From: a virus
Reading direction: 5' to 3' (one strand)
Virus record (IMG/VR): IMGVR_UViG_3300045988_087627
Coordinates: 1 to 44,613 of that record
DNA length: 44,613 nt
The notes beneath the pieces were generated by a model. The model was given only the letters and a program-made list of their open reading frames with translations, was not told where the DNA came from and made no database searches. The position numbers and the translations under genes are program-made. Positions 7,625 to 36,700 of this stretch are shown piece by piece (positions within the stretch are counted from its first letter, which is position 1; every line of letters starts with the position of its first letter).

Positions 7625-7935
7625 ATGAACGTAGTAAGTAAAGATGTTGAAAAGCTCGTGGAAAAGGAACTGGAAGCGCAAAAGCGCGGTTTCCACGGTT
7701 CCATAGCCCGCATGAGGGGTGGGCGGTGCTACGTGAGAAATACGACGAACTGGAAGAAGAAGTGCATCAGCTCGACGGCGAGATCAACTGCTATTTGTGG
7801 GGAAGCGTGAAACGCAATACAACTGCTGACAATGTGGAAGCAATTAGACTGCGCGCTATCTCCGCCGCTTGCGAGGCTATACAGGTGGCGGCGATGGCAC
7901 AGAAGTACCTTGACATGTTGGAAAGAGAGGAATGA
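7625..7935 (+). CDS. conserved phage protein that needs a -1 frameshift (or 1-nt indel correction) at A-run 7680-7683
   Basis: ATG 7625 follows ggaggagg. The downstream part (FHSPHEGWAVLREKYDELEEEV...) lies in the -1 frame, which is open from 7651 and has no start codon before GTG 7726. Confidence 0.6.
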
Positions 7936-7936
7936 A

Positions 7937-8491
7937 ATGAAGAAAATTGCTTTAATCGTGCTGGCTATCGTGGCCGCGCTGGTACTTATGATCGCCGCTG
8001 CGTTCGTGTCGGCCAATAACCGCGCGGTATCGGCGGAGGAACAGGTCAGTTCGGCGGCGGCCGACGTACAGGTAGCTGAGAAACGCCGTGTTGACCTCGT
8101 ATACAATCTGGCGGACGCGGTGAAGTCCTACCAGAACTACGAGGGTGATACGCTGACCAGGATTACACAGGCTCGCACTGCTGCTGCATCGGGCAAGGTA
8201 GAAGAAGCACAGGTTACGTTAAATGCTGTTGCGGAGCAGTACCCGGAACTCAAGGCAAACGAAAATTACAAGCAACTCATGACCGAACTTGCGCTGACCG
8301 AGAACCAGATCGCGCAGTACCGCAACAACTACAATCAGCAGGTACGGGCATACAACAAGCTGGTACGGTCTTTCCCGACCGGTTTTCTGCTGAGGGTAAT
8401 GAACTATCAGACAATCGACACGACCTACACGGACTACGATGCACCGGAAGATGCTCCGCAGAACCTGTTCGGTGGCGGCGATGGAGATTAA
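7937..8491 (+). CDS. lemA: LemA family membrane protein
   Basis: N-terminal TM helix, then NNRAVSAEEQVSSAAADVQVAEKRRVDLVYNL...YPELKANENYKQLMTELALTENQIAQYRNNYNQQVRAYN, the LemA signature. Confidence 0.85.
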   Translation: MKKIALIVLAIVAALVLMIAAAFVSANNRAVSAEEQVSSAAADVQVAEKRRVDLVYNLADAVKSYQNYEGDTLTRITQARTAAASGKVEEAQVTLNAVAEQYPELKANENYKQLMTELALTENQIAQYRNNYNQQVRAYNKLVRSFPTGFLLRVMNYQTIDTTYTDYDAPEDAPQNLFGGGDGD

Positions 8492-9206
8492 GCCTCGTGA
8501 GATTGCGTTCAGCGTTGCAATCGTGTTTGTTATGGTGGCACTGGGATTTCTGCTCGGTAGCAAAATCAGTGACCATATCGCTGAGACAAACGAGAAATTT
8601 ACCACGGCAGCGCAGATCACAGACGATGAGCAGTTTCAGTACGCGCTGGCTACCGATTTCGGGAATGTCATCGCTTACGGCGATCTGATCGCGGAACAAC
8701 CTGTTTCGGCAGATGATTTGGACGGCGAATACGCAATACTGACCAAAATCACGGAACGATACACCATGCACACGCGCGAAGTGACCTATACCGATAGCAA
8801 GGGACATACGCACACCCGCACCGAGATATATTGGACGTGGGACAGGGTGAAACGAGAAGAAGACAGCACGGAAACTTTTTCGTTTATGGGTGTATCATTT
8901 CCGGCGGACAAGTTTTCTGTTACAGCACACCAACAGGGCGATACAATCTATGACAGCAGACTTGTGCGGCATTATTACGAAGCTGTGGACGCAAATATGG
9001 TTGGCAGTATACATACGCAAATCAAAGATCATATGATTGCAGACAACAACAGGTTTTATACGGACGCAGAACCACAGGCGATTGTAAACCTTGCTATAAG
9101 ACAAGGTAATATTGCTATCATCTTGTTCGGTGTATTATGGATTGCACTGACCGGTGGCGCGGTATATGGTTTCTGTGCGCTGGAAAACAGGTGGCTGGAC
9201 GGATAA
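8481..9206 (+). CDS. two-TM membrane protein, LemA partner (GIDE-like, tentative)
   Basis: ATG 8481 overlaps the lemA end by 11 nt. It has an N-terminal TM (IAFSVAIVFVMVALGFLLG) and a C-terminal TM (IAIILFGVLWIALTGGAVYGF). Confidence 0.7.
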   Translation: MEIKPREIAFSVAIVFVMVALGFLLGSKISDHIAETNEKFTTAAQITDDEQFQYALATDFGNVIAYGDLIAEQPVSADDLDGEYAILTKITERYTMHTREVTYTDSKGHTHTRTEIYWTWDRVKREEDSTETFSFMGVSFPADKFSVTAHQQGDTIYDSRLVRHYYEAVDANMVGSIHTQIKDHMIADNNRFYTDAEPQAIVNLAIRQGNIAIILFGVLWIALTGGAVYGFCALENRWLDG

Positions 9207-9355: not shown

Positions 9356-9601
9356 ATGATCGATACTGCGAGGAAGTCGGGCGTTACTTACTATGGCGAT
9401 ACGCCGTGCAGGACGTGCGCGTACTGGCGGACGCTCGGCAACTATAAAAATCTGAAGCTGTGGGCGTGCCACTACGCATTGGTTAACCGGCATTCAAGGG
9501 GATGCGAGCCGGGCGAAAGGTGCACAAAAAGAACAGAAAGCTACCGCAGACGGATAGCTTTCAAGCACGACGGAAGCACCGAGGAGATTACAAGCCGATG
9601 A
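9356..9601 (+). CDS. small Cys-rich hypothetical protein
   Basis: RBS ggagaggag. CRTCAYW...WACHYALVNRHSRGCEPGERC. ATGA-coupled to the next gene. Confidence 0.6.
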   Translation: MIDTARKSGVTYYGDTPCRTCAYWRTLGNYKNLKLWACHYALVNRHSRGCEPGERCTKRTESYRRRIAFKHDGSTEEITSR

Positions 9602-10011
9602 CAGCGAAAGAATGGCTGATGCGCGGGCGCGCACTGGAAAAAACGATTACAGCCTTGCAGGAGGCGCGGAAACGCGCCTATGCACGGGCTACGGGCGCAA
9701 CCGCGCCGGTAAGGGACACGCCGGGCGGAAAAGGGAGCACGGGGAACAAGGCGGACCCCTATATCGAATTGGGCGAGAAGATCGCAGCGAAGGAAAACGA
9801 GCTTGCGGAGATATACGGCGAGATCGTGCGCGTGCTGGGCGAAATGCGGGATAATGAGCTGCAAACGCTCCTGCTTGAACGTTACGTGAACGGCGCAACA
9901 TGGGCGCAGACGGCGCGGCGGCTGCATTACAGCGAGGCGCACGTGAAGGGCTACATGCACAGAATGGCGCTGAATGCTGTGGATAAGTTAATACCCCACA
10001 ATACGCAATAA
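9598..10011 (+). CDS. RinA/ArpU/DUF1492-like late transcriptional activator (sigma region-4-type HTH)
   Basis: MTAKEWLMRGRALEKTITALQEARKRAY...LLLERYVNGATWAQTARRLHYSEAHVKGYMHRMAL. It lies upstream of the packaging module. Confidence 0.7.
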   Translation: MTAKEWLMRGRALEKTITALQEARKRAYARATGATAPVRDTPGGKGSTGNKADPYIELGEKIAAKENELAEIYGEIVRVLGEMRDNELQTLLLERYVNGATWAQTARRLHYSEAHVKGYMHRMALNAVDKLIPHNTQ

Positions 10012-10028
10012 TGTGATATACTGATATC

Positions 10029-10815
10029 GTGGAAGAGCTCCAAGGGAGCAAAACCACGGCATTCACGGGTTGATAAATTCCGGTTATGTCCTCCTAATTC
10101 TCTCCCCTGCTTCGGCGGGGGACACGCTCCAAAGGCTGCACGAGGCCGGCGGGGCTCACACTTCCTTTCGCCCAAGCATTCCCAAATGAGGCGGGAAACC
10201 GCCTCGATCTGTCCGCCGCGTCTGCACGAGGACGCGCCGGGCCATTCGACTTCCGGGAATACAGTTCAAGGGAACGCGGCAGAGATGCCGCACATGCTCC
10301 AAAGCCTGCATGAGGGCGGCGGGGCAAAAAAAGACAGCCGAACGGCTGCCCATAATCTGATAGCCCGGAAAGACGGGCACGGGCGCAGCTTACGGAACGG
10401 CGCGCCGACACCTATTCTGGCGGCCCAGAAAGACGGGCACTGTTTGCGAACTTTGCCGGACTGCCCGGCAGGCCTTGCGCAGGGCCAAAGCGTCAGTACA
10501 CAGCGCAGCAGCACGTGTATCAGGGAGTAATTCCCTGCAACGGGGTAGCGCCCTGCGGTGAAAGTCCGCCGGTTTGCAGGCCGATAACTGCGCGCGAGGG
10601 GTTCAAAATTCGAACGTCCTATTTTGTAGCAGCCCCTGAGCGCAAGCCGGGAAACCGTCCGTAAAGCCGGACGCAAGGCGCAGCGATACGCGCACATACC
10701 CCGAAAGGGGTATACATGCAGCCGAAAGTTGATACGCGGTGCAATTCCGTGTGGCTGCACCTCCAATTGTCATAGTAAAAGCACCTCCCCGGGATGGCTT
10801 CGGGAAGGTGCTTTT
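10029..10815 (+). ncRNA. candidate large structured RNA (~0.8 kb; GOLLD/ROOL size class, family unverified)
   Basis: No credible ORF. There are many hairpins with GAAA/UUCG loops on the + strand only, internal covarying repeat hairpins, and a 3' intrinsic terminator. Possible promoters are the extended -10 tgatatact (10014-10022) or TTGATA-17-CCTAAT (10070-10098). The 5' end is uncertain. Confidence 0.55.
10777..10815. terminator. bidirectional intrinsic terminator
   Basis: aaaagcacctccccg-ggatggctt-cgggaaggtgctttt. The hairpin has an A-run before and a T-run after, between convergent + and - transcription. Confidence 0.75.
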
Positions 10816-10843
10816 GCTTAGATGTTGCTTAGATGTTGCTTAG
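10816..10843. repeat. 11-nt tandem repeat gcttagatgtt x2.5
   Basis: Read directly from the sequence. It overlaps the stop codon of the - strand ORF 10840..11001. Confidence 0.8.
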
Positions 10844-11001
10844 CGGTTATCATAAGCGCATAGAGCCTCGCACAGCTCGCGCGTCGGGCACTGAGAGCAG
10901 TCGCACTCCGAAATGATAACATTTTCGCACAGTGCGCGAGGATCGGCCATAAAAACGGCCTCGGCTGCTCGGTAGTCCTCAGGGGTAATGATGTTATACA
11001 T
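10840..11001 (-). CDS. small Cys-rich hypothetical protein (53 aa)
   Basis: MYNIITPEDYRAAEAVFMADPRALCENVIISECDCSQCPTRELCEALCAYDNR. RBS ggaggcgtaaccc precedes the ATG. It is below the ORF-track length cutoff. Confidence 0.55.
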   Translation of the reverse strand: MYNIITPEDYRAAEAVFMADPRALCENVIISECDCSQCPTRELCEALCAYDNR

Positions 11002-12030: not shown

Positions 12031-12080
12031 GGTGTGTACCTCCTGTTTTGTGTTTCGGTGTTTTCCTTTGCTGTGATTAC

Positions 12081-12187
12081 ATGATACTACACGTTAACGT
12101 ATAATGCAATAGGCAAGATGCACAAAGATACACGTTAACTGTTATGCAGATTTATACGTTGACGTATAAAGCAAGCCGTGTTACACT
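12081..12187. promoter_or_regulatory. divergent promoter region with three palindromic operators (consensus TATACGT-NN-ACGTATA)
   Basis: Operators: site A tacacgttaacgtata 12088-12103; site B atacacgttaactgttat 12128-12145 (weaker); site C ttatacgttgacgtataa 12152-12169. - strand promoter: TTGCAT(12109-12104)-17-TATCAT(12086-12081). + strand promoter: TTGACG(12159-64)-17-TACACT(12182-87). Confidence 0.6.
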
Positions 12188-12214
12188 TATTCTATATATG
12201 TAGGAGGTGCAAAC

Positions 12215-30771: not shown

Positions 30772-33700
30772 ATGGCAAGCAAAGATAAAAAATATCAGCT
30801 GAGCGAGGGACGCAAGAAGCAGCTTGAGCAGGCACGGCGGAACGCGAAGAACGCTTCGAAGCAGTCGAAACCCGCGTCGAACTACCTCGGCGGCTCGACG
30901 AAGAAAACCACCACAACCAAGAAAACAAGCGGCACGCAGAACCGAAACAATACAGTGAGCCGCTCTACCGGCGGCAAGAGCACGGTAACGAACCGGAACG
31001 TAAAGCAGGCGGACAAAGTAAACTCGGCGCGTCCCTATCGGCAGAGCGTCCGCAGCCTCGGCGACACGGTCGGCATTACGCGTGAGGGCAGACAGCAGAG
31101 GCAGGACACGAGGCGGCAGAACAACGCAAAGAAGGTACTCGAGACTGCAAAGGCAAACGGCACGTTCAAGGCCAGCGGCACGATAAGTGCGCCAAAGCAG
31201 AACACACTCCCGCGCGCAAGCGGCGGCTTTAGAAGCTCGGGCACGGGCAAAACGTGGAACGAGAAGGAAGAACGGCAGAAGGCGATTGACACCTTAAACG
31301 CGAACTCGATCATGTGGCACAACACCACGGACGAGGCAGAACGGAACCGCCTGCACGAGGCGAACAATCAGATTCGCAAGAGCTTCGGCATGACGTATCG
31401 AGACAAGACCGGCGCAACCTATCTCCCCAAGGCAGGCGGCACGACCAACGTTTCCACGCCTGTTGTCAAGATCGCCCGCGGCGCGGCGCTCAACCGTGCA
31501 GCAACCTCTCAGGCGCAGCGTCAGCAGCGCGTAGACGAGCTCAACAGCGAAATCGAGCGCATGCAGAAGCAGTACCCCTACCTCATCAACATGGACGTGC
31601 AAGGGCGGAACACGGCGGACAAGGCGGCGGCTATCGCTCACCTTGCAACTCATCCGAAACTTGCGATTGCAGGCATTAACGGCAGTGCGCAGTATGACAG
31701 GATGAGCGCAGACGAGAAAAAGCAGGCGCAGGCAATCTATCAGCTGTACAAGCGTCTGAACGACGAAAGCAACGCACTGAGCAAGATGAGCGCGGCCAAG
31801 TCGTGGGGAAGCGGCGCGGCAAACACGCTGCTGAATGCAACGGGCGCGGTGGAGAATGCGGGACGCTATGTTTCCGGCACGGCAAACAAGGCGGCAGGCG
31901 ATTTCCTCGACTTTATCGGCAAGGATAAAGCAGGTCAGTTCCTCAAGGGCACGGCGCAGAAAACGTTAGAGGGCAGTCTCTCAGACAAGGCCTTGCAGGC
32001 GGTAAATGAATGGGCGCAGCCTGTCGGCATGGCGAAAAAGGGACAGGAGTTTGCAGGCTCGGCGGCACGCATGGCGCCGGGCATTGCGGCGAACATGGCG
32101 CTGCCGGGCGCAAGCCTTGCGATGATCTACGGGGACAGTGCGAAAAGCGGCGTAAATGAAGCGCAGAGGGAGGGCGCGACGCTCGACCAGGCGATGCTTT
32201 ACGGCACGGGCGCGGGTCTTACCGAACTTGGCACGGAAAAGATGTTCAGCGGCATTCCGGGCATGGGTGAGGGCGTTATCAAGACTGGAAACGGCATTCT
32301 CGGACGCGCGGCGGATATTCTGGGCGAGGGCGCAGAGGAAGCGGCGAGCACGTTCATCAATCCCTATCTCAAGCGGGCAACTTACAACCCGAACGCGCAG
32401 AACGCGACGGCAAAGGAGCTGCTCGACAGCGCAAAGGGCGGTATCGCCATGTCGGCGCTCATGCAGGGCGCAAGCGGTGCGGCAAACCGCCTTGCAGACT
32501 ACCGATACGGCACGGACACGAACACGGTCTACACCTCTCCCGAGGAAGCAAACCGCGATATGGTAGACCCGGTCTATGCACTGCCGAACGGTCAGCGGCT
32601 TGCACTCCCTGAGGGCAACACGCGCACGGCAAACACGCTGTATGCGAACGAAAACGGCAGTGTGGCGAACAATCTGCGTGCATTCAATGATGTTCAGACC
32701 CCGGATGTGCTGTACGGCAATATGCGCGGCGATTTCACAGCGTCGCAGAACAGCGGAAACGTACTGTATGCAGGTCCGAACGGACAGGTGGCGCAGAGCC
32801 TTCCGACCGGGTATCTGCCGGAGGGACGCAGCACCAAGACCAGGATCGCGGCGCGCGGCGAGACGAGAACCATCCCGCTGATGGACGAGTTCGAGACCAA
32901 CGGCGGACTTTACCGCGGGGAAATGGAGTGGGCAAAGCTGCTCATCGACAACTCCAACGAGACCGGCGTTCCGATCAAGACGTATATCGAGGCGCTTGTA
33001 GACCCGGCAGAAAAAAAGATGGGCGCGGTGCTTGACGCGGCGGAACAGTACGTGAAGAACTACAAGAAGCAGGGCGTTTCTATCATTCAGAACGGAGACG
33101 GAACAGGCTACCGCGCAAGCAATAACGAAGATTGGTACAGCCAGTTCTACAGGAAATATGGGCGTGCGCCGAGGAAGTCGGACGCGGCCGACATTGCACG
33201 TGAGTTTATTCAGCACGATCTGCGTGCAGGCGGCGGCAACTGGGTATCGCCCGAGCTTGCGCGGGATTGGTCGGAAGCACAACAGATTCAGGCTGCGTAT
33301 GATGCCATCGGAGACGATGCGGTCAGCGCGGAGATCACACCGGAAGGCCTCAAGGTTATGAACGGCACTCGTGCACGCACAGAGGACATCCGCGAGACGA
33401 ACGCGGGACGGAACGCGATTGTCTCCCCGGCAGAGATCAACAACACGGCACAGCCGCTCGACCTCAATGCGGCACAGGGTGTACAGCAGGGCGCGGTGCA
33501 GAGCAATCCGACACTGCGGGATATTCGCCCGAAGCTCCGCACGGCGGCACAGGCGGCGCAGGAGAGTGCGCAGAATGCCCCGGCGGAAATTACGCAGCCG
33601 ATGCAGGGGAACGCACAGGGTGCGGCTCTGGGGGCACAGCAGACCGCACAGGCGAACGACATTAACCCGACGCTGAAAAAGGCGTGGGTAAATGCGGAAA

Positions 33701-36700
33701 GCTCGGTCGGCGCGGCGGAAGGCGGCTTTGACCCGTACTCCAGAATGGTAAACGACTACGGCGCTATCCCGGAGGGCGAGAACCCGGCGAGGGTGGTGGA
33801 TGTGCCGCAGAGTACCAATGGGGAGGATAGGGTACGCCGCGGCGCAAGAACCTTTATGGAAAGCGGCATTACCACCGATGAAATGATTCCGTCCTTTGAA
33901 CAGGAGGTCGCAAACGGTACATTTTCCTATAATGTGAAAACCGATAAAAGCGCACTGAACAATGCGGTAAGAACCATCAACAAGAAGGGATGGCAGGGCG
34001 CAATGGAACAGTGGGAGGACGTAACAGACGGCCGCAGAACAGCGAGCAAGGACGACATCGTACTCGCGGAAACCATGTACTCGGCGGCAGTCAAGTCCGG
34101 CGACACGCAGACGGCTATGCGGCTGGCGGCGGAAATCGCGGCAGAGGGTACAAGAGCCGGTCAGGAAGTGCAGGCTATCAAGCTGCTGAAAAAGACCACG
34201 CCAGAAGGCCAGCTATATTACTTGCAGAAGGCTGTCGAGAAAATTCAGCAGGAATACCAGGCGCGATTTGACAAGCTCGACAGGAAGGCAGAAAAGAAGG
34301 CGGCAAAGAATGGCGTTCCCGGCGCAGAGGTCGCAGAACAGCACGGCATCACTCTGAACGAGGATTTGGTGCAGGAGTTTTTGAATGCGCCAGATGAGGA
34401 CGCGCGGAAACAGGTCGTAGACAAGATTTATGACGATATTGCGAGCCAGATACCGGCGACGGCAGGCGACAGGCTGAACGCATGGCGCTATTTTGCGATG
34501 CTCGGCAATCCGAGAACACATATCCGCAACATTATGGGCAACGTAGCCTCTGCGGCGGCGCTCGATACCAGTCACAAGGTTTCGGCAGTCGGACAGAAGT
34601 TTTTGCCGCAGGAAAAGCGAACCCGTGCGCTGCATACGAGCAAGGCCGCGAAGCAGTTTGCCAAGGCGGACTATGCAAACGTCGAGGCGGAACTCAGCGG
34701 CAATGCCTACAAAACCGAAATGAGCGAAATCAAGCAGCGGCAGAAACTGTTTCCAAAGCCGCTGCAAAAGGTGATGGACGCGAACACATGGGCGCTTGAC
34801 GCGGAAGATCAGGTTTTTAAGAAGAAATCCTACATTGACAGCATGGGCAACTTCCTGACGGCGCGCGGCTGGGACGTGAACAATCTGACGGAAGCGCAGT
34901 TGAACGAGGCGCGTCAGCACGCGATTCAGGACGCGAAGATCGCAACGTTTCAGGATGCGTCTAAGCTGGCGGACACGCTCAGCCAACTGGAAAAGAAGAA
35001 CAAGGCAACAGAAGTTATTATCGGCTCGCTTGTGCCGTTCAAGCGCACGCCAATCAACGTTGCAAAGCGCTCGTTTGAGCTGTCGCCGGTCGGTCTGCTG
35101 AAAGCAATCACCTATGACGCGGTGCAGGTCAAGAAGGGCAACATGGACGCAACCAAGATGATCGACCACATCGGACAGGGTCTTACCGGTTCAAGCGTTG
35201 CGGCGCTCGGCGCGTTCCTTGCAGCGCAGGGCATTTTCTCGGCAGGCTCGAGCGACGACGACAAGGAAGCAAACCTTGACGCGGGCATGGGTCAGCAGGA
35301 GTATGCAATCAACCTGTTCGGCAAGTCGTACACGATTGACTGGGCGTCTCCGGCTGTTGTGCCGCTTGCGATGGGCGGCGAACTGTATGAAGCACTGCAC
35401 CAGAAGTACGACGATGACGAGACGGCCTTCAATCAGGCAATGGCAACGGTCAGCCGTATGTTCGACCCGATGCTCAACATGACGATGCTGTCCGGCATTG
35501 GCTCGACGGTTACGAGCGCGGCATACAACAAGAGCAATCCGCTGTTTGGCATTGCAAGCAACGTTGCAACCAACTTTGGCGGTCAGTTCGTGCCGACGCT
35601 GTTCGGACAGGTTGCGCGGACGGTGGACAACACGCGCAGAACCACCTATGCGGACAAGAACAGTCCTGTTCCGTCGAGCGTGCAGAAGTTCTTGCAGCGT
35701 CAGGCGAACAAAATTCCGGGTCTGTCGCAGAACCAGCCTGCATATACGGACGTATGGGGCAGAGAACAGAAAAACGGGCCGGACAATGTGTTTGCACGCG
35801 CGGCGTACAACTTCCTCTCGCCGGGCTATCTGGCAGATGCAAAGAGCACACAGACCGAAAAGGCGCTCAAGGAGCTGTATCAGGCAACCGGCGACAACTC
35901 TGTATTGCCAAGCAAGCCGCAGAAGTATTACAAGACTGAGGACGGCACAAAGAAGTTCCTCACTGCGCAGGAGTATTCCGCGCTGACAAGCGAGGGCGGC
36001 AAGATCGCACTGGATGCGCTCGGCAAACTGACAAAATCCGAAGCGTACAAGGGCATGACCAACGACGAGAAGATCGAGGCGGTATCCGATGTGTACAAGT
36101 ACGCAAAGGCAGTCGCGGCAAACAAGACCTACGGTAAGGAGCTTGAGGGCACGATCCAGACCGTCAAGGACAGCGGCATTGAGCCGGGTCTTTACTACGC
36201 CTACAAGGAGATGGAGGACAGTTATAACGACAGCATGGAAAGCTGGGAAGCGCGAGACCAGACGTTTAACTCCATCAAGAGCGACAAGTCGCTTTCTGAG
36301 CAGGAGAAGAACAGCCTGTATCACACGCTGCTTATCAAGGGTACATCTGACAGCCAGTGGGAGAAGTACCAGGAAATCAGCGGCAAGGTGACGGCCGAGG
36401 AGTTCGTTGACGCGATGATACAGAAGCAGGCTATCACCAAGGAGGGCGAGAACATCGACAAGGGACGCGCGGCGGCTGAGGCGACCGAGTTCTCTTATTA
36501 CCTCGATGCAAAGGGTTACACCGGCGCAAAGAGGGAAGCGCTCGAAAACACGTTCAAGTTCTATTCCATGGTCAAGGCGGACCCGGCAAACTACACCTTC
36601 GACATGATACGTGAAAACGGCGGCACAAAGGAGAAAGCAGCAATCGGCGAGGTCGAGAGCGCAGGCATTTCCGCGCCGCAGTACGCGAAGATTAAGACGG

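Follow-up and report, generated by a model that had tools for sequence, protein, structure and literature searches.

The subject of this analysis is a tract of ~800 nucleotides (nt) in a phage genome of ~44.7 kb, represented by the IMG/VR record IMGVR_UViG_3300045988_087627; the stretch examined, hereafter the window, comprises positions 1 to 44,613 of that record, and the phage is identical to one ENA gut-metagenome contig. The tract follows the gene of a regulator, whose stop codon TAA was located at 10009-10011 by direct inspection of the sequence, and ends at a strong terminator; both boundaries of the ~800-nt gap given in a preliminary description of this DNA are thus present. On the 3' side of the terminator there are three minus-strand genes, coding for a 53-aa Cys-rich protein, a 145-aa protein and a DnaJ-domain protein, and beyond this trio the plus strand carries an RHH gene, TerS, TerL and portal. 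The tract is almost certainly a real structured non-coding RNA. Moreover, its sequence points to ~10029-10818 of the plus strand as the probable extent of an independently transcribed RNA gene of ~790 nt.

A search for relatives in gut viromes, which had been proposed as a check, revealed a widespread family, with members in well over 150 IMG/VR contigs and in many ENA/Logan gut assemblies. Group A consists of window-like sequences (~95% identical) with three or four copies of a repeated hairpin, termed here the hexaloop unit. In group B the regulator is 46-54% identical and the RNA is ~1.15-1.2 kb long with four or five units, and at locus L024 (regulator 42% identical) there is a natural mini-version of ~280 nt with a single unit. 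Additional lineages include group C, in which the RNA is found together with tRNA and packaging genes and to which locus L257 belongs, and individual loci such as L251 and L253.

The tract 10012-10830 is non-coding. Open reading frames (ORFs) of 105-166 aa occur on both of its strands, and they are only shadows, as had been supposed: they are not conserved, and the two longest of the window are frame-shifted or stop-interrupted in almost every close relative. In a distant group, long minus-strand ORFs share with the window ORF only a 20-nt motif, and the frame changes between loci. Among 22 dereplicated close relatives, variable sites are spread evenly over codon positions (34/35/29, 54/59/56 and 13/15/17), and 146 of 170 indels are not a multiple of three. 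In other words, homologs have revealed neither an intact ORF nor codon-periodic substitution. The tract ORFs have no Pfam or PHROG matches, and none of the 8 public assemblies has a gene call in the gap.

The orientation of the RNA, originally proposed from its GAAA and UUCG loops, is backed by base-pairing asymmetry and by a conserved promoter box and terminator. In the stems of the units there are 156 G·U cells versus 7 A·C, and 87.7% of cells are paired when read on the plus strand compared with 66.9% on the minus strand. The RNAfold z-score against dinucleotide shuffles is -5.7 for the plus strand and -3.5 for the minus strand. Directly after the regulator stop lies a conserved extended -10 promoter box, TGATATACT (10014-10022, plus strand). 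A box of the type TGnTAnAnT is present at the same position in five lineages (TGGTATAAT, TGCTATTAT, TGGTATAGT and TGATATAAT), and a motif of this type occurs once in the window. The tRNA-containing relative L257 has a full TTGATA-17-TATAAT promoter with upstream TG (11/12 matches). Transcription of the window RNA would accordingly be expected to start near 10029, at the foot of the nested hairpin that opens its 5' end.

At the other end, an intrinsic terminator (10774-10818, plus strand) combines a GC-rich hairpin with a U tract at a conserved position. Its 18-nt arms (10774-10791 and 10801-10818; inverted repeat I1) are 89% complementary and are followed by TTTTGCTT, the hairpin running into UUUUGCUU; it is present in both the minimum free energy (MFE) and the centroid structures, and AAAA on the 5' side makes it bidirectional. 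A consensus scan overlooked this terminator because of its 9-nt loop. Group B has a terminator at the same position with a fully compensated stem (AAACCCCGCUCACC / GGUGAGCGGGGUUU), beyond which the sequence is unrelated between loci, and L024 has one at the equivalent place. Locus L025 is reduced to the promoter box, ~50 nt and an immediate terminator. Two minor features may be added here. An 11-nt tandem repeat, TTGCTTAGATG, begins inside the terminator U tract (10814-10848, 2.7 copies); its copies vary from ~1 to 4 among close relatives, some of which replace the repeat entirely. On the minus strand, the hairpin CAGCC-GAAC-GGCUG at 10332-10351, preceded by A7, reads as a terminator-like GGGCAGCCGTTCGGCTGTCT + TTTTTTT, which could stop antisense transcription entering the RNA gene.

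Architecture of the RNA and compensatory changes in its helices

The six hairpins and the three hairpins with UGCAYGAG loops listed in the preliminary description are all present in the sequence at the coordinates given there. They are part of the following plus-strand architecture. A nested hairpin at the 5' end, CGUGG-AAGA-GCUCC-AAG-GGAGC-AAAA-CCACG (10028-10058), is found in the RNAfold MFE and centroid structures. Both of its stems show compensatory changes in other lineages: the outer one occurs as CGUGAU/AUCACG, UGUGAU/AUCACG or UUGAG/CUCAA, and the inner one as GCCC/GGGC, GCUC/GAGC or GCCCC/GGGGC. The 5' spacer that follows includes a single-stranded, anti-Shine-Dalgarno-like CCUCCU (10090-10095). 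Next comes the GC-rich hairpin CCCCUGC-UUCG-GCGGGG (10104-10120; MFE and centroid), the place of which is taken in group B, L024, L251 and group C by a GC-rich hairpin of other sequence.

Three hexaloop units follow. Unit 1 (10123-10160; 45.5 bits, E 7e-10 with the unit covariance model R1) has an outer stem GCUCC/GGGGC, an A-rich internal loop, an inner stem and the loop GCACGA. Unit 2 (10208-10246; 27.7 bits, E 4e-5) has a continuous stem and the same loop, and unit 3 (10293-10330; 52.9 bits, E 7e-12) has the loop GCAUGA. Unit 3 is a duplicate of unit 1: the internal duplication noticed earlier extends over 10122-10155 and 10292-10325 (88% of 34 nt), and the differences between its two copies include, beside the loop, a compensatory exchange of G:C for C:G. 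A fourth unit is inserted ~105 nt after unit 3 in some close relatives. When the unit model was run over the 44.6 kb with filters off, exactly three significant matches were obtained, all on the plus strand within the tract, the next-best score in the window being 10.8 bits. Chance would give 0.54 occurrences of the core CTGCRYGAGG in the window; there are 4. Interspersed with the units are two hairpins that are both present in the MFE and centroid structures, a GAAA-capped one (GAGGCGG/CCGCCUC, 10188-10205) and a GAGA-capped one (GCGGCA/UGCCGC, 10276-10291). In relatives the 3' strand of the former reads CCGUCUC and forms a G·U pair, permitted on the plus strand only.

As to the hexaloops themselves, positions 3-4 in the main units are purine-pyrimidine only (AU, AC, GU or GC) in all lineages. 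The loop thus shows AUG, ACG, GUG or GCG (or CAU, CAC, CGU or CGC) directly before GAGG, with AUG/CAU predominating; in relatives there is a tRNA-Met (anticodon CAU) nearby.

Downstream of the units, the second duplicate of the preliminary description, GCCCRGAAAGACGGGCAC at 10363-80 and 10423-40, proved to lie within a 28-nt repeat (D3; 82% identity). It forms hairpins K1 (GCCCG-GAAAGA-CGGGC, 10363-10380) and K2 (10423-10440), both with the GAAAGA loop and covarying stems, which in relatives appear as GUCCG/CGGAC, GCUCG/CGAGC or GCGUG/CACGC. The middle region (10441-10640) is variable and its helices, including the hairpins CAGGGA-GUAAU-UCCCUG (10521-10537) and GCGG-UGAAAGU-CCGC, are predicted. 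In L006, L013, L017 and L020 this region is replaced, alignment being confined to query positions 1-429/448 and 605-819. The 3' domain begins with a group of elements at 10648-10693: the hairpin CGG-GAAA-CCG, the hairpin GUCCG-UAAAGC-CGGAC (extended to CGUCCG-UAAAGC-CGGACG, 10656-10673) and a helix of GCGC (10678-81) with GCGC (10690-93). It continues with AUACCCC-GAAA-GGGGUAU (10696-10713), the most widely conserved landmark of the family. The last element before the terminator (10717-10759) is a long helix with an arm: the 7-bp (base pair) helix UGCAGCC/GGCUGCA (10717-23 / 10753-59) encloses a 10-nt linker and the 6-bp arm ACGCGG-UGCAAUU-CCGUGU with its 7-nt loop, the arm running directly into the 3' strand. 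This element folds at -18.5 kcal/mol.

Comparison of the relatives indicates that several helices are maintained by compensatory change; covariation across homologs extends to the helices listed originally, namely the unit hairpin, the 3' domain, and GNRA and other hairpins. All 65 distinct unit sequences fold into one architecture. The 87.7% of paired cells in the unit hairpin drop to 35-51% when the partners are slid, 5 pairs (86 cells) have changed on both sides, and none of 500 shuffles reaches the score. The pair beside the invariant core occurs as C-G, G-C, U-G, G-U, A-U and U-A.

For the 3' domain we used a second covariance model (R2), built from six window-type sequences with the window structure (CAUACC hairpin, long helix and UGCAAUU hairpin). 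With this model three other lineages score 43-52 bits, and scores of 21-32 bits are obtained for group C, L024 and the cultured phage Chenonceau. In the resulting alignment (A6) 97.5% of cells are paired, a value somewhat inflated because the alignment was fitted to the model, compared with 26-51% for slid versions. As many as 11 of the 20 pairs have changed on both sides (6 of 7 in the long helix and 4 of 6 in the arm), a count that exceeds every slid version and every shuffle (0/500). The T-loop-like hairpin is fully paired in 19 of 36 flank variants, the shuffled mean being 5.1. Mixed alignments add further examples. The three-pair GNRA hairpin takes the forms CGG-GAAA-CCG, UGA-GAGA-UCA, GGC-GCAA-GCC and GGA-GGAA-UCC, with RNAalifold pair counts of CG 12 / GC 10 / UA 8 and GC 15 / AU 8 / CG 7. 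Two more helices of the 3' domain covary as well, and a pair of the helix 10678-81 / 10690-93 is counted as GC 13 / AU 9 / GU 4. In the AUACCCC hairpin, CCCC/GGGG switches to CCGC/GCGG within group A; the pair counts for this hairpin are CG 24 / GC 7. It should be mentioned that in mixed MAFFT alignments the lineages are out of register, so that RNAalifold under- or mis-calls helices, a problem solved by covariance-model alignment. Likewise, a loop-anchored flank test for the GAAAGA hairpins was swamped by occurrences of the word in coding DNA, and zone enrichment was informative instead.

A modular family of phage RNAs

These comparisons make the window RNA one member of an extensive family of phage RNAs, modular in build, ~0.28-1.2 kb long and with 1-5 hexaloop units. 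The 20-nt unit motif retrieves 76 IMG/VR contigs. A probe derived from the AUACCCC hairpin, CAUACCNCGAAAGNGGUA, finds 102 stretches, many of them in new contigs, and adds more than 80 further loci from many samples. Since the probe selects for none of the other motifs, their presence nearby can be compared with expectation: beside the probe hairpin in 60 distinct loci there are 52 hexaloop GCRYGA hairpins (0.9 expected), 14 GAAAGA-loop hairpins (0.6 expected) and 29 T-loop-like UGCRANN hairpins (6.7 expected). Model R1, which was built from groups A and B, detects only 4 units of the group-C/L024 type at E<=0.01; it is too narrow for them because they use CC-GCAUGA-GG.

The grammar of the family can be summarized as follows. 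From 5' to 3', the order begins with the 5' hairpin, single-stranded CCUCC(U), a GC-rich hairpin and 1-5 units, each a two-stem hairpin with an A-rich internal loop and the invariant C(U/C)-GCRYGA-GG hexaloop. These are followed by GAAAGA-loop and GNRA hairpins, the CAUACCCC-GAAA-GGGGUAU hairpin, and then either the T-loop-like element or real tRNAs. The 3' block is conserved across lineages, which differ in how many 5' and middle modules they carry and in what these contain. In many relatives tRNA-Met begins 5 nt after the conserved hairpin, and tRNA-Arg, -Thr or -Ile are located inside or upstream of the RNA, with a tRNA-like domain also inside. The window has no tRNA genes according to ARAGORN. 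Genomic settings differ too: at L279 the order is a dNTP pyrophosphohydrolase gene, the RNA and HNH-TerS-TerL, and at L257 it is TerL, a GIY-YIG endonuclease gene and the RNA with tRNAs. In L257, 10086-10156 scores 54.5 bits with the Rfam tRNA model and is not called by ARAGORN, and 9935-10075 resembles a tRNA that has a D arm of class-II type and, as its acceptor-like stem, UUGAGCGG/CCGCUCAA, the anticodon arm being replaced by a large insertion.

One member of ~500 nt is found in a cultured phage, Flavonifractor plautii phage Chenonceau (locus L341, 2446-2929, corresponding to ON453904.1 18215-18698). Consequently, the host range of the family includes Oscillospiraceae. The Chenonceau element is overlain by two 'hypothetical proteins' called by PHANOTATE, WAK79791.1 and WAK79792.1, which are probably spurious gene calls. 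Another phage, Castelnaud, has a partial match to the L257 element. Chenonceau and Castelnaud are inducible prophages of strain YL31 in OMM12 mice (PMC10197239). The host clue came through group-C relatives, blastn of the window tract against annotated phages having returned nothing. A DNA pattern of three units, searched against genome contigs, matched only GC-rich Actinomycetota and Proteobacteria, and none of these matches was real by BLAST; CTGCGCGAGG is a common word in GC-rich genomes, which accounts for such chance matches. Other RNA motifs occur in the same phages. The int-alpA RNA motif (RF02996) directly follows the element in L312 (5543-5612) and, by eye, also in Chenonceau (L341 ~2870-2940), and in L285 it lies ~2.5 kb from the element (2399-2466). 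Skipping-rope, GP20-b and gut-2 RNAs are present elsewhere in these phages.

Known RNAs and possible roles

To our knowledge, few large, intricately folded RNAs of bacteria and phages have been described: rRNA, RNase P, group I and II introns, OLE, GOLLD, ROOL and raiA. The preliminary description had assigned the tract to the GOLLD/ROOL class or to a new one. Its second option is the one that stands, as membership in GOLLD or ROOL received no model or profile match: the RNA very probably represents a new family, and we infer a new class, comparable in kind to GOLLD and ROOL and included in neither. The suggested cmscan check with Rfam 15 gave no family at gathering score in the window or in 15 relatives. 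With permissive filters, GOLLD, ROOL, OLE, raiA, HEARO, introns and riboswitches were absent at E<=10 from window 9900-10950, L024 and L257. The best Rfam match was a chance one to Plastid-ycf2, at 25 bits compared with a gathering score of 65.7 bits. Cobalamin and FMN riboswitches, group I/II introns, HEARO, OLE and raiA had also been considered as candidates and were dropped, having no Rfam support. For direct comparison we took the GOLLD env-38 and ROOL env-120 sequences from Supplementary Table 4 of the cryo-EM paper. Three family profiles run with nhmmer found nothing in env-38 or env-120 at E<=10, whereas the same profiles match the window at 1e-10 to 1e-38. Only chance matches of 9-12 nt to env-38 were returned by blastn, env-38 and env-120 lack all four types of signature hairpin, and the signature strings are absent from the GOLLD and ROOL alignments. 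The GC content also differs, being 60% in the window RNA, 39% in env-38 and 35-39% in known GOLLD/ROOL seeds.

Nonetheless, the general resemblance is considerable. GOLLD is a phage-borne RNA of >800 nt with a conserved 3' part, a variable 5' part, tRNAs sometimes present in a linker, and an unknown function (PMC12286853); env-38 adjoins a Met-tRNA (PMC12286853). Our RNA is likewise a large, ornate phage or prophage RNA of ~0.8 kb (GOLLD: RF01998) with a less conserved 5' and a conserved 3' part, and tRNAs, including Met-tRNA, are sometimes in or next to the RNA, here in relatives and not in the window copy. In size and layout (~790 nt in the window, up to ~1.2 kb in relatives) it is of the GOLLD type, a likeness that is analogous and no proof of homology. 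Unlike GOLLD, the present family has GCRYGA hexaloop units, GAAAGA hairpins and the CAUACCCC hairpin. ROOL (RF03087) is similar in being a large ornate RNA of Bacillota phages and prophages, often near tRNA islands and of unknown function (PMC5737381, PMC12286853). It differs in that there is no covariance-model match and no similarity to env-120, and in that the window family varies from 0.28 to 1.2 kb and in module number. We found no description of the family in the literature searched, although anonymous fragments may be included in the 2023 viral RNA catalogue (PMC10690425), whose 10,006 viral candidate RNAs are motifs of 29-151 nt only. A third, unrelated family in the GOLLD/ROOL niche would make giant phage RNAs linked to tRNA islands a recurrent invention. 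It would also give RNA and phage biologists a third tractable family among these unexplained RNAs, one that is common in human-gut phage assemblies.

As for function, a trans-acting multivalent scaffold or decoy, connected with tRNA or translation biology, is our preferred but tentative suggestion, plausible and still short of probable. Made from the regulatory/late-gene junction during phage development, the RNA would act in trans as a folded scaffold, and its repeated invariant loops would be multivalent contact sites for a protein or for a ribosome- or tRNA-related partner. Alternatively, the repeated loops might serve self-assembly of the GOLLD/ROOL kind, the assembled form of GOLLD being a homo-oligomeric nanocage (14-mer). 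Such a multi-site scaffold is suggested by the combination of invariant loops and internal loops with drifting stems, by the 1-5 copies, and by the abundance of GNRA, UUCG and T-loop-like caps. A structured RNA with near-identical loops in variable number is built as one would expect of a multivalent binder. The CsrB/RsmZ sponges similarly have a variable number of near-identical hairpin loops on stems that are free to covary. The window RNA differs from them in its loops (GCRYGA closed by C-G and U·G, not GGA), in being more elaborate and phage-borne, and in that no CsrA-type partner is indicated; a CsrA-type GGA sponge was rejected on account of the lack of the GGA motif in the loops. Kissing loops were considered and rejected as well: CAUG and CGCG are palindromic, but the non-self-complementary CACG dominates window units 1 and 2, and its complement CGUG occurs in group B only.

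It is tempting to speculate that the RNA mimics parts of the translation apparatus and acts as a decoy or sponge in trans, although we consider this distinctly unlikely. The idea would join three features: a copy of the 16S rRNA tail (CCUCCU), a mimic of the tRNA top half, in place of which relatives have real tRNAs, and 1-5 hairpins displaying R-Y-G (AUG in most cases) beside GAGG. Each of the 10 lineage representatives carries CCUCC 46-76 nt downstream of its -10 box, compared with 14% of background 110-nt windows. Some of the 5' ends were located by a pattern that requires CCTCC, whereas those of groups A and B, L024, L251 and L253 were fixed independently by the regulator stop. With the 16S rRNA 3' tail, L024 shares 11 nt and L257 shares 10 nt; 1.1% of background windows reach 9 nt. 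The element at 10717-10759 could be a mimic of the tRNA top half, with acceptor stem and T-arm geometry. Its place is taken in group C by a real tRNA-Met, onto which the covariance model aligned the helices of the element. Like tRNA (RF00005), the element stacks a 7-bp helix on a 6-bp arm, the 7-nt loop of which is of the U-N-C-R-A type; unlike tRNA, it is devoid of a D arm, an anticodon arm and a CCA end, and neither ARAGORN nor the Rfam tRNA model at E<=10 calls a tRNA there. The targets of such a mimic might be defence nucleases directed at anticodons, tRNA or rRNA, or else 30S subunits or initiator tRNA, and late in infection translation would thereby be protected or redirected. If true, this would provide a functional handle on why RNAs of the GOLLD/ROOL type travel with phage tRNA islands.

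Several observations weigh against a free-standing, structured RNA gene as outlined above. The promoter of the window has no recognisable -35 hexamer and was not listed by a consensus scan, and the start and end of the RNA have been placed from sequence. The middle 200 nt (~10441-10640) are variable, with helices that are predictions, and the pairing percentage of the 3' domain is inflated to some extent, as noted. A single very large sample contributed many of the relatives, and the sequences therefore lack independence. Finally, in group C the RNA continues straight into a ribosome-binding site (RBS) and the HNH/TerS genes without a clear terminator, a layout that fits the role of a leader or a processed precursor at least as well as that of a free-standing gene.

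It is this last point that makes a cis-acting leader worth considering. According to this alternative, which we regard as rather unlikely, the tract would head the late (packaging/structural) transcript as a leader, its target being the mRNA or transcription complex of which it is itself a part. Its action might be processive antitermination (nut/boxB, put or EAR-like) with read-through of the terminator at 10774-10818, or else it might be a platform for processing or stability, with RNase P or Z cleaving at tRNA-like elements. The tract indeed lies at the regulatory/late junction, directly after a sigma-like regulator and a promoter box. The promoter box, ~50 nt and terminator of L025 form a layout like lambda PR'-tR', the group C RNA is followed by an RBS and HNH-TerS-TerL, L340 has same-strand genes next, and tRNAs and the tRNA-like 3' element would supply RNase P/Z sites. 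The GAAAGA hairpins (GCCCG-GAAAGA-CGGGC) presumably resemble lambda boxB, the hairpin that accompanies boxA in nut sites and is bound there by an arginine-rich N-like protein, with effect on terminators further downstream. More generally, lambda nut, PR'-6S-tR' and HK022 put share with the window a promoter after a late regulator, a structured RNA and a terminator before late genes. However, the window RNA is ten times larger, and known antitermination RNAs are in general far smaller; no Rfam antitermination family matches. Besides, the window and most group A/B relatives have 1-3 convergent genes (~1.2 kb) between the terminator and the late genes, which means that read-through would be antisense, and the promoter-like region of the late genes is a separate one, with an operator-like repeat of another kind. 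The family is also found away from late promoters: the L257 RNA is downstream of TerL, within a tRNA island. The regulator is seldom upstream (3 of the 86 wider loci), and no N- or Q-like protein was identified in the window, where no search was aimed at N-like proteins.

The remaining explanations are less probable. A highly divergent member of GOLLD or ROOL, missed because the Rfam models are too narrow, is very unlikely. It would agree with the size class, the phage location, the variable 5' and conserved 3' parts, the embedded tRNAs and the Met-tRNA adjacency in relatives, and the AT-rich seeds (35-39% GC) might hide homology to an RNA with 60% GC. Yet there is no match at gathering score or at E<=10 in the window, L024 and L257, the 15 other relatives show none at gathering score, the only level at which they were compared, and no profile, signature hairpin or signature string matches env-38, env-120 or the alignments. 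It is highly improbable that the tract functions as DNA, either as an array of protein sites (for the regulator or terminase) or as pac, cos or a replication origin, the hairpins being incidental. An invariant 10-mer does recur every 84-112 bp, and the tract is near the packaging module, at a recombination joint between modules. Against this, stems covary while loops are fixed, which is a signature of RNA, G·U outnumber A·C cells by 156 to 7, only one of the strands gives correct GNRA and UUCG loops, the tract is flanked by a conserved promoter and a conserved terminator, and the family occupies varied genome positions. The notion that the tract encodes a protein (e.g. the 166-aa minus-strand ORF 10266-10766) or a type III toxin-antitoxin-like repeat RNA can hardly be correct. 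The ORFs of 105-166 aa on both strands and the annotation of the homologous region of Chenonceau as two hypothetical proteins would fit the former, but codon periodicity is lacking, the frame does not survive the indels, and the ORFs, which match neither Pfam nor PHROG, are disrupted in relatives. Repeated units followed by a terminator would fit the latter. However, TRF detects no tandem array in the RNA, what the units have in common is just the hairpin and not a complete repeat, none of the neighbouring proteins has a match among toxin or defence models (PADLOC), and the next gene is on the opposite strand; the ToxI-like arrangement, tandem repeats upstream of a same-strand endoribonuclease gene, is thus not found here.

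Returning to the scaffold or decoy acting in trans, the family itself offers material for experiments. Owing to its modularity, with 1-5 copies of the invariant hairpin and natural minimal versions of ~280 nt, it constitutes a ready-made deletion series, and function is directly testable because Chenonceau is a prophage that can be induced in a culturable strain of a model consortium (F. plautii YL31, OMM12). The family also draws attention to a recurring annotation error, whereby the RNA region is called as hypothetical proteins.

Neighbouring genes

The regulator gene (9598-10011, plus strand) lies outside the RNA and is given here as context. Its ORF extends over 9502-10011 and most likely starts at the internal ATG 9598, after a GAGGAG RBS, because the alignment of homologs does not begin before residue 34 and the product has 137 aa in public gene calls. 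The former designation of the product as a RinA-like late activator is only loosely supported: what can be said is that the protein is weakly sigma-70 region-4-like and belongs with the phrog_36 regulators (E 0.0018 against Pfam Sigma70_r4_2, E 9e-15 against phrog_36, and weak matches to NCBIfam sigma models). Homologs of the regulator are upstream of the RNA in groups A and B, L024, L251 and L253, and in only 3 of the 86 wider loci, on which ground it was rejected as an obligatory partner of the RNA.

Public assemblies with a window-type locus were retrieved using the portal and the 137-aa regulator as queries. In these assemblies (L333-L340) the regulators are 100% identical, yet the packaging modules differ (Terminase_2 + Terminase_6N, or Terminase_3), and so do the sets of small genes accompanying the same regulator and RNA. 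Since identical regulators and RNA are joined to different packaging modules, the RNA travels with the left arm, and the differing modules imply a recombination joint just downstream of the RNA and the 53-aa gene.

Just 5' of the regulator, a LemA-family protein (7832-8491; E 2e-31) and a phrog_3886 membrane-like protein (8439-9206) are encoded, and both genes are conserved in all close relatives. Between the DnaJ-domain gene (minus strand) and the RHH gene (plus strand), 12076-12190 is a divergent promoter region with 3 copies of operator-like ACGTT(A/G)AC(G/T)(T/G)TAT and two promoter-like sites, a regulatory grammar different from that of the box after the regulator. In the structural region, 30772-37329 is a single ORF of 2185 aa, presumably a giant protein of the tail or tape-measure type, and it contains the sole other exact CTGCACGAGG of the window (31351), where it has no hairpin context.

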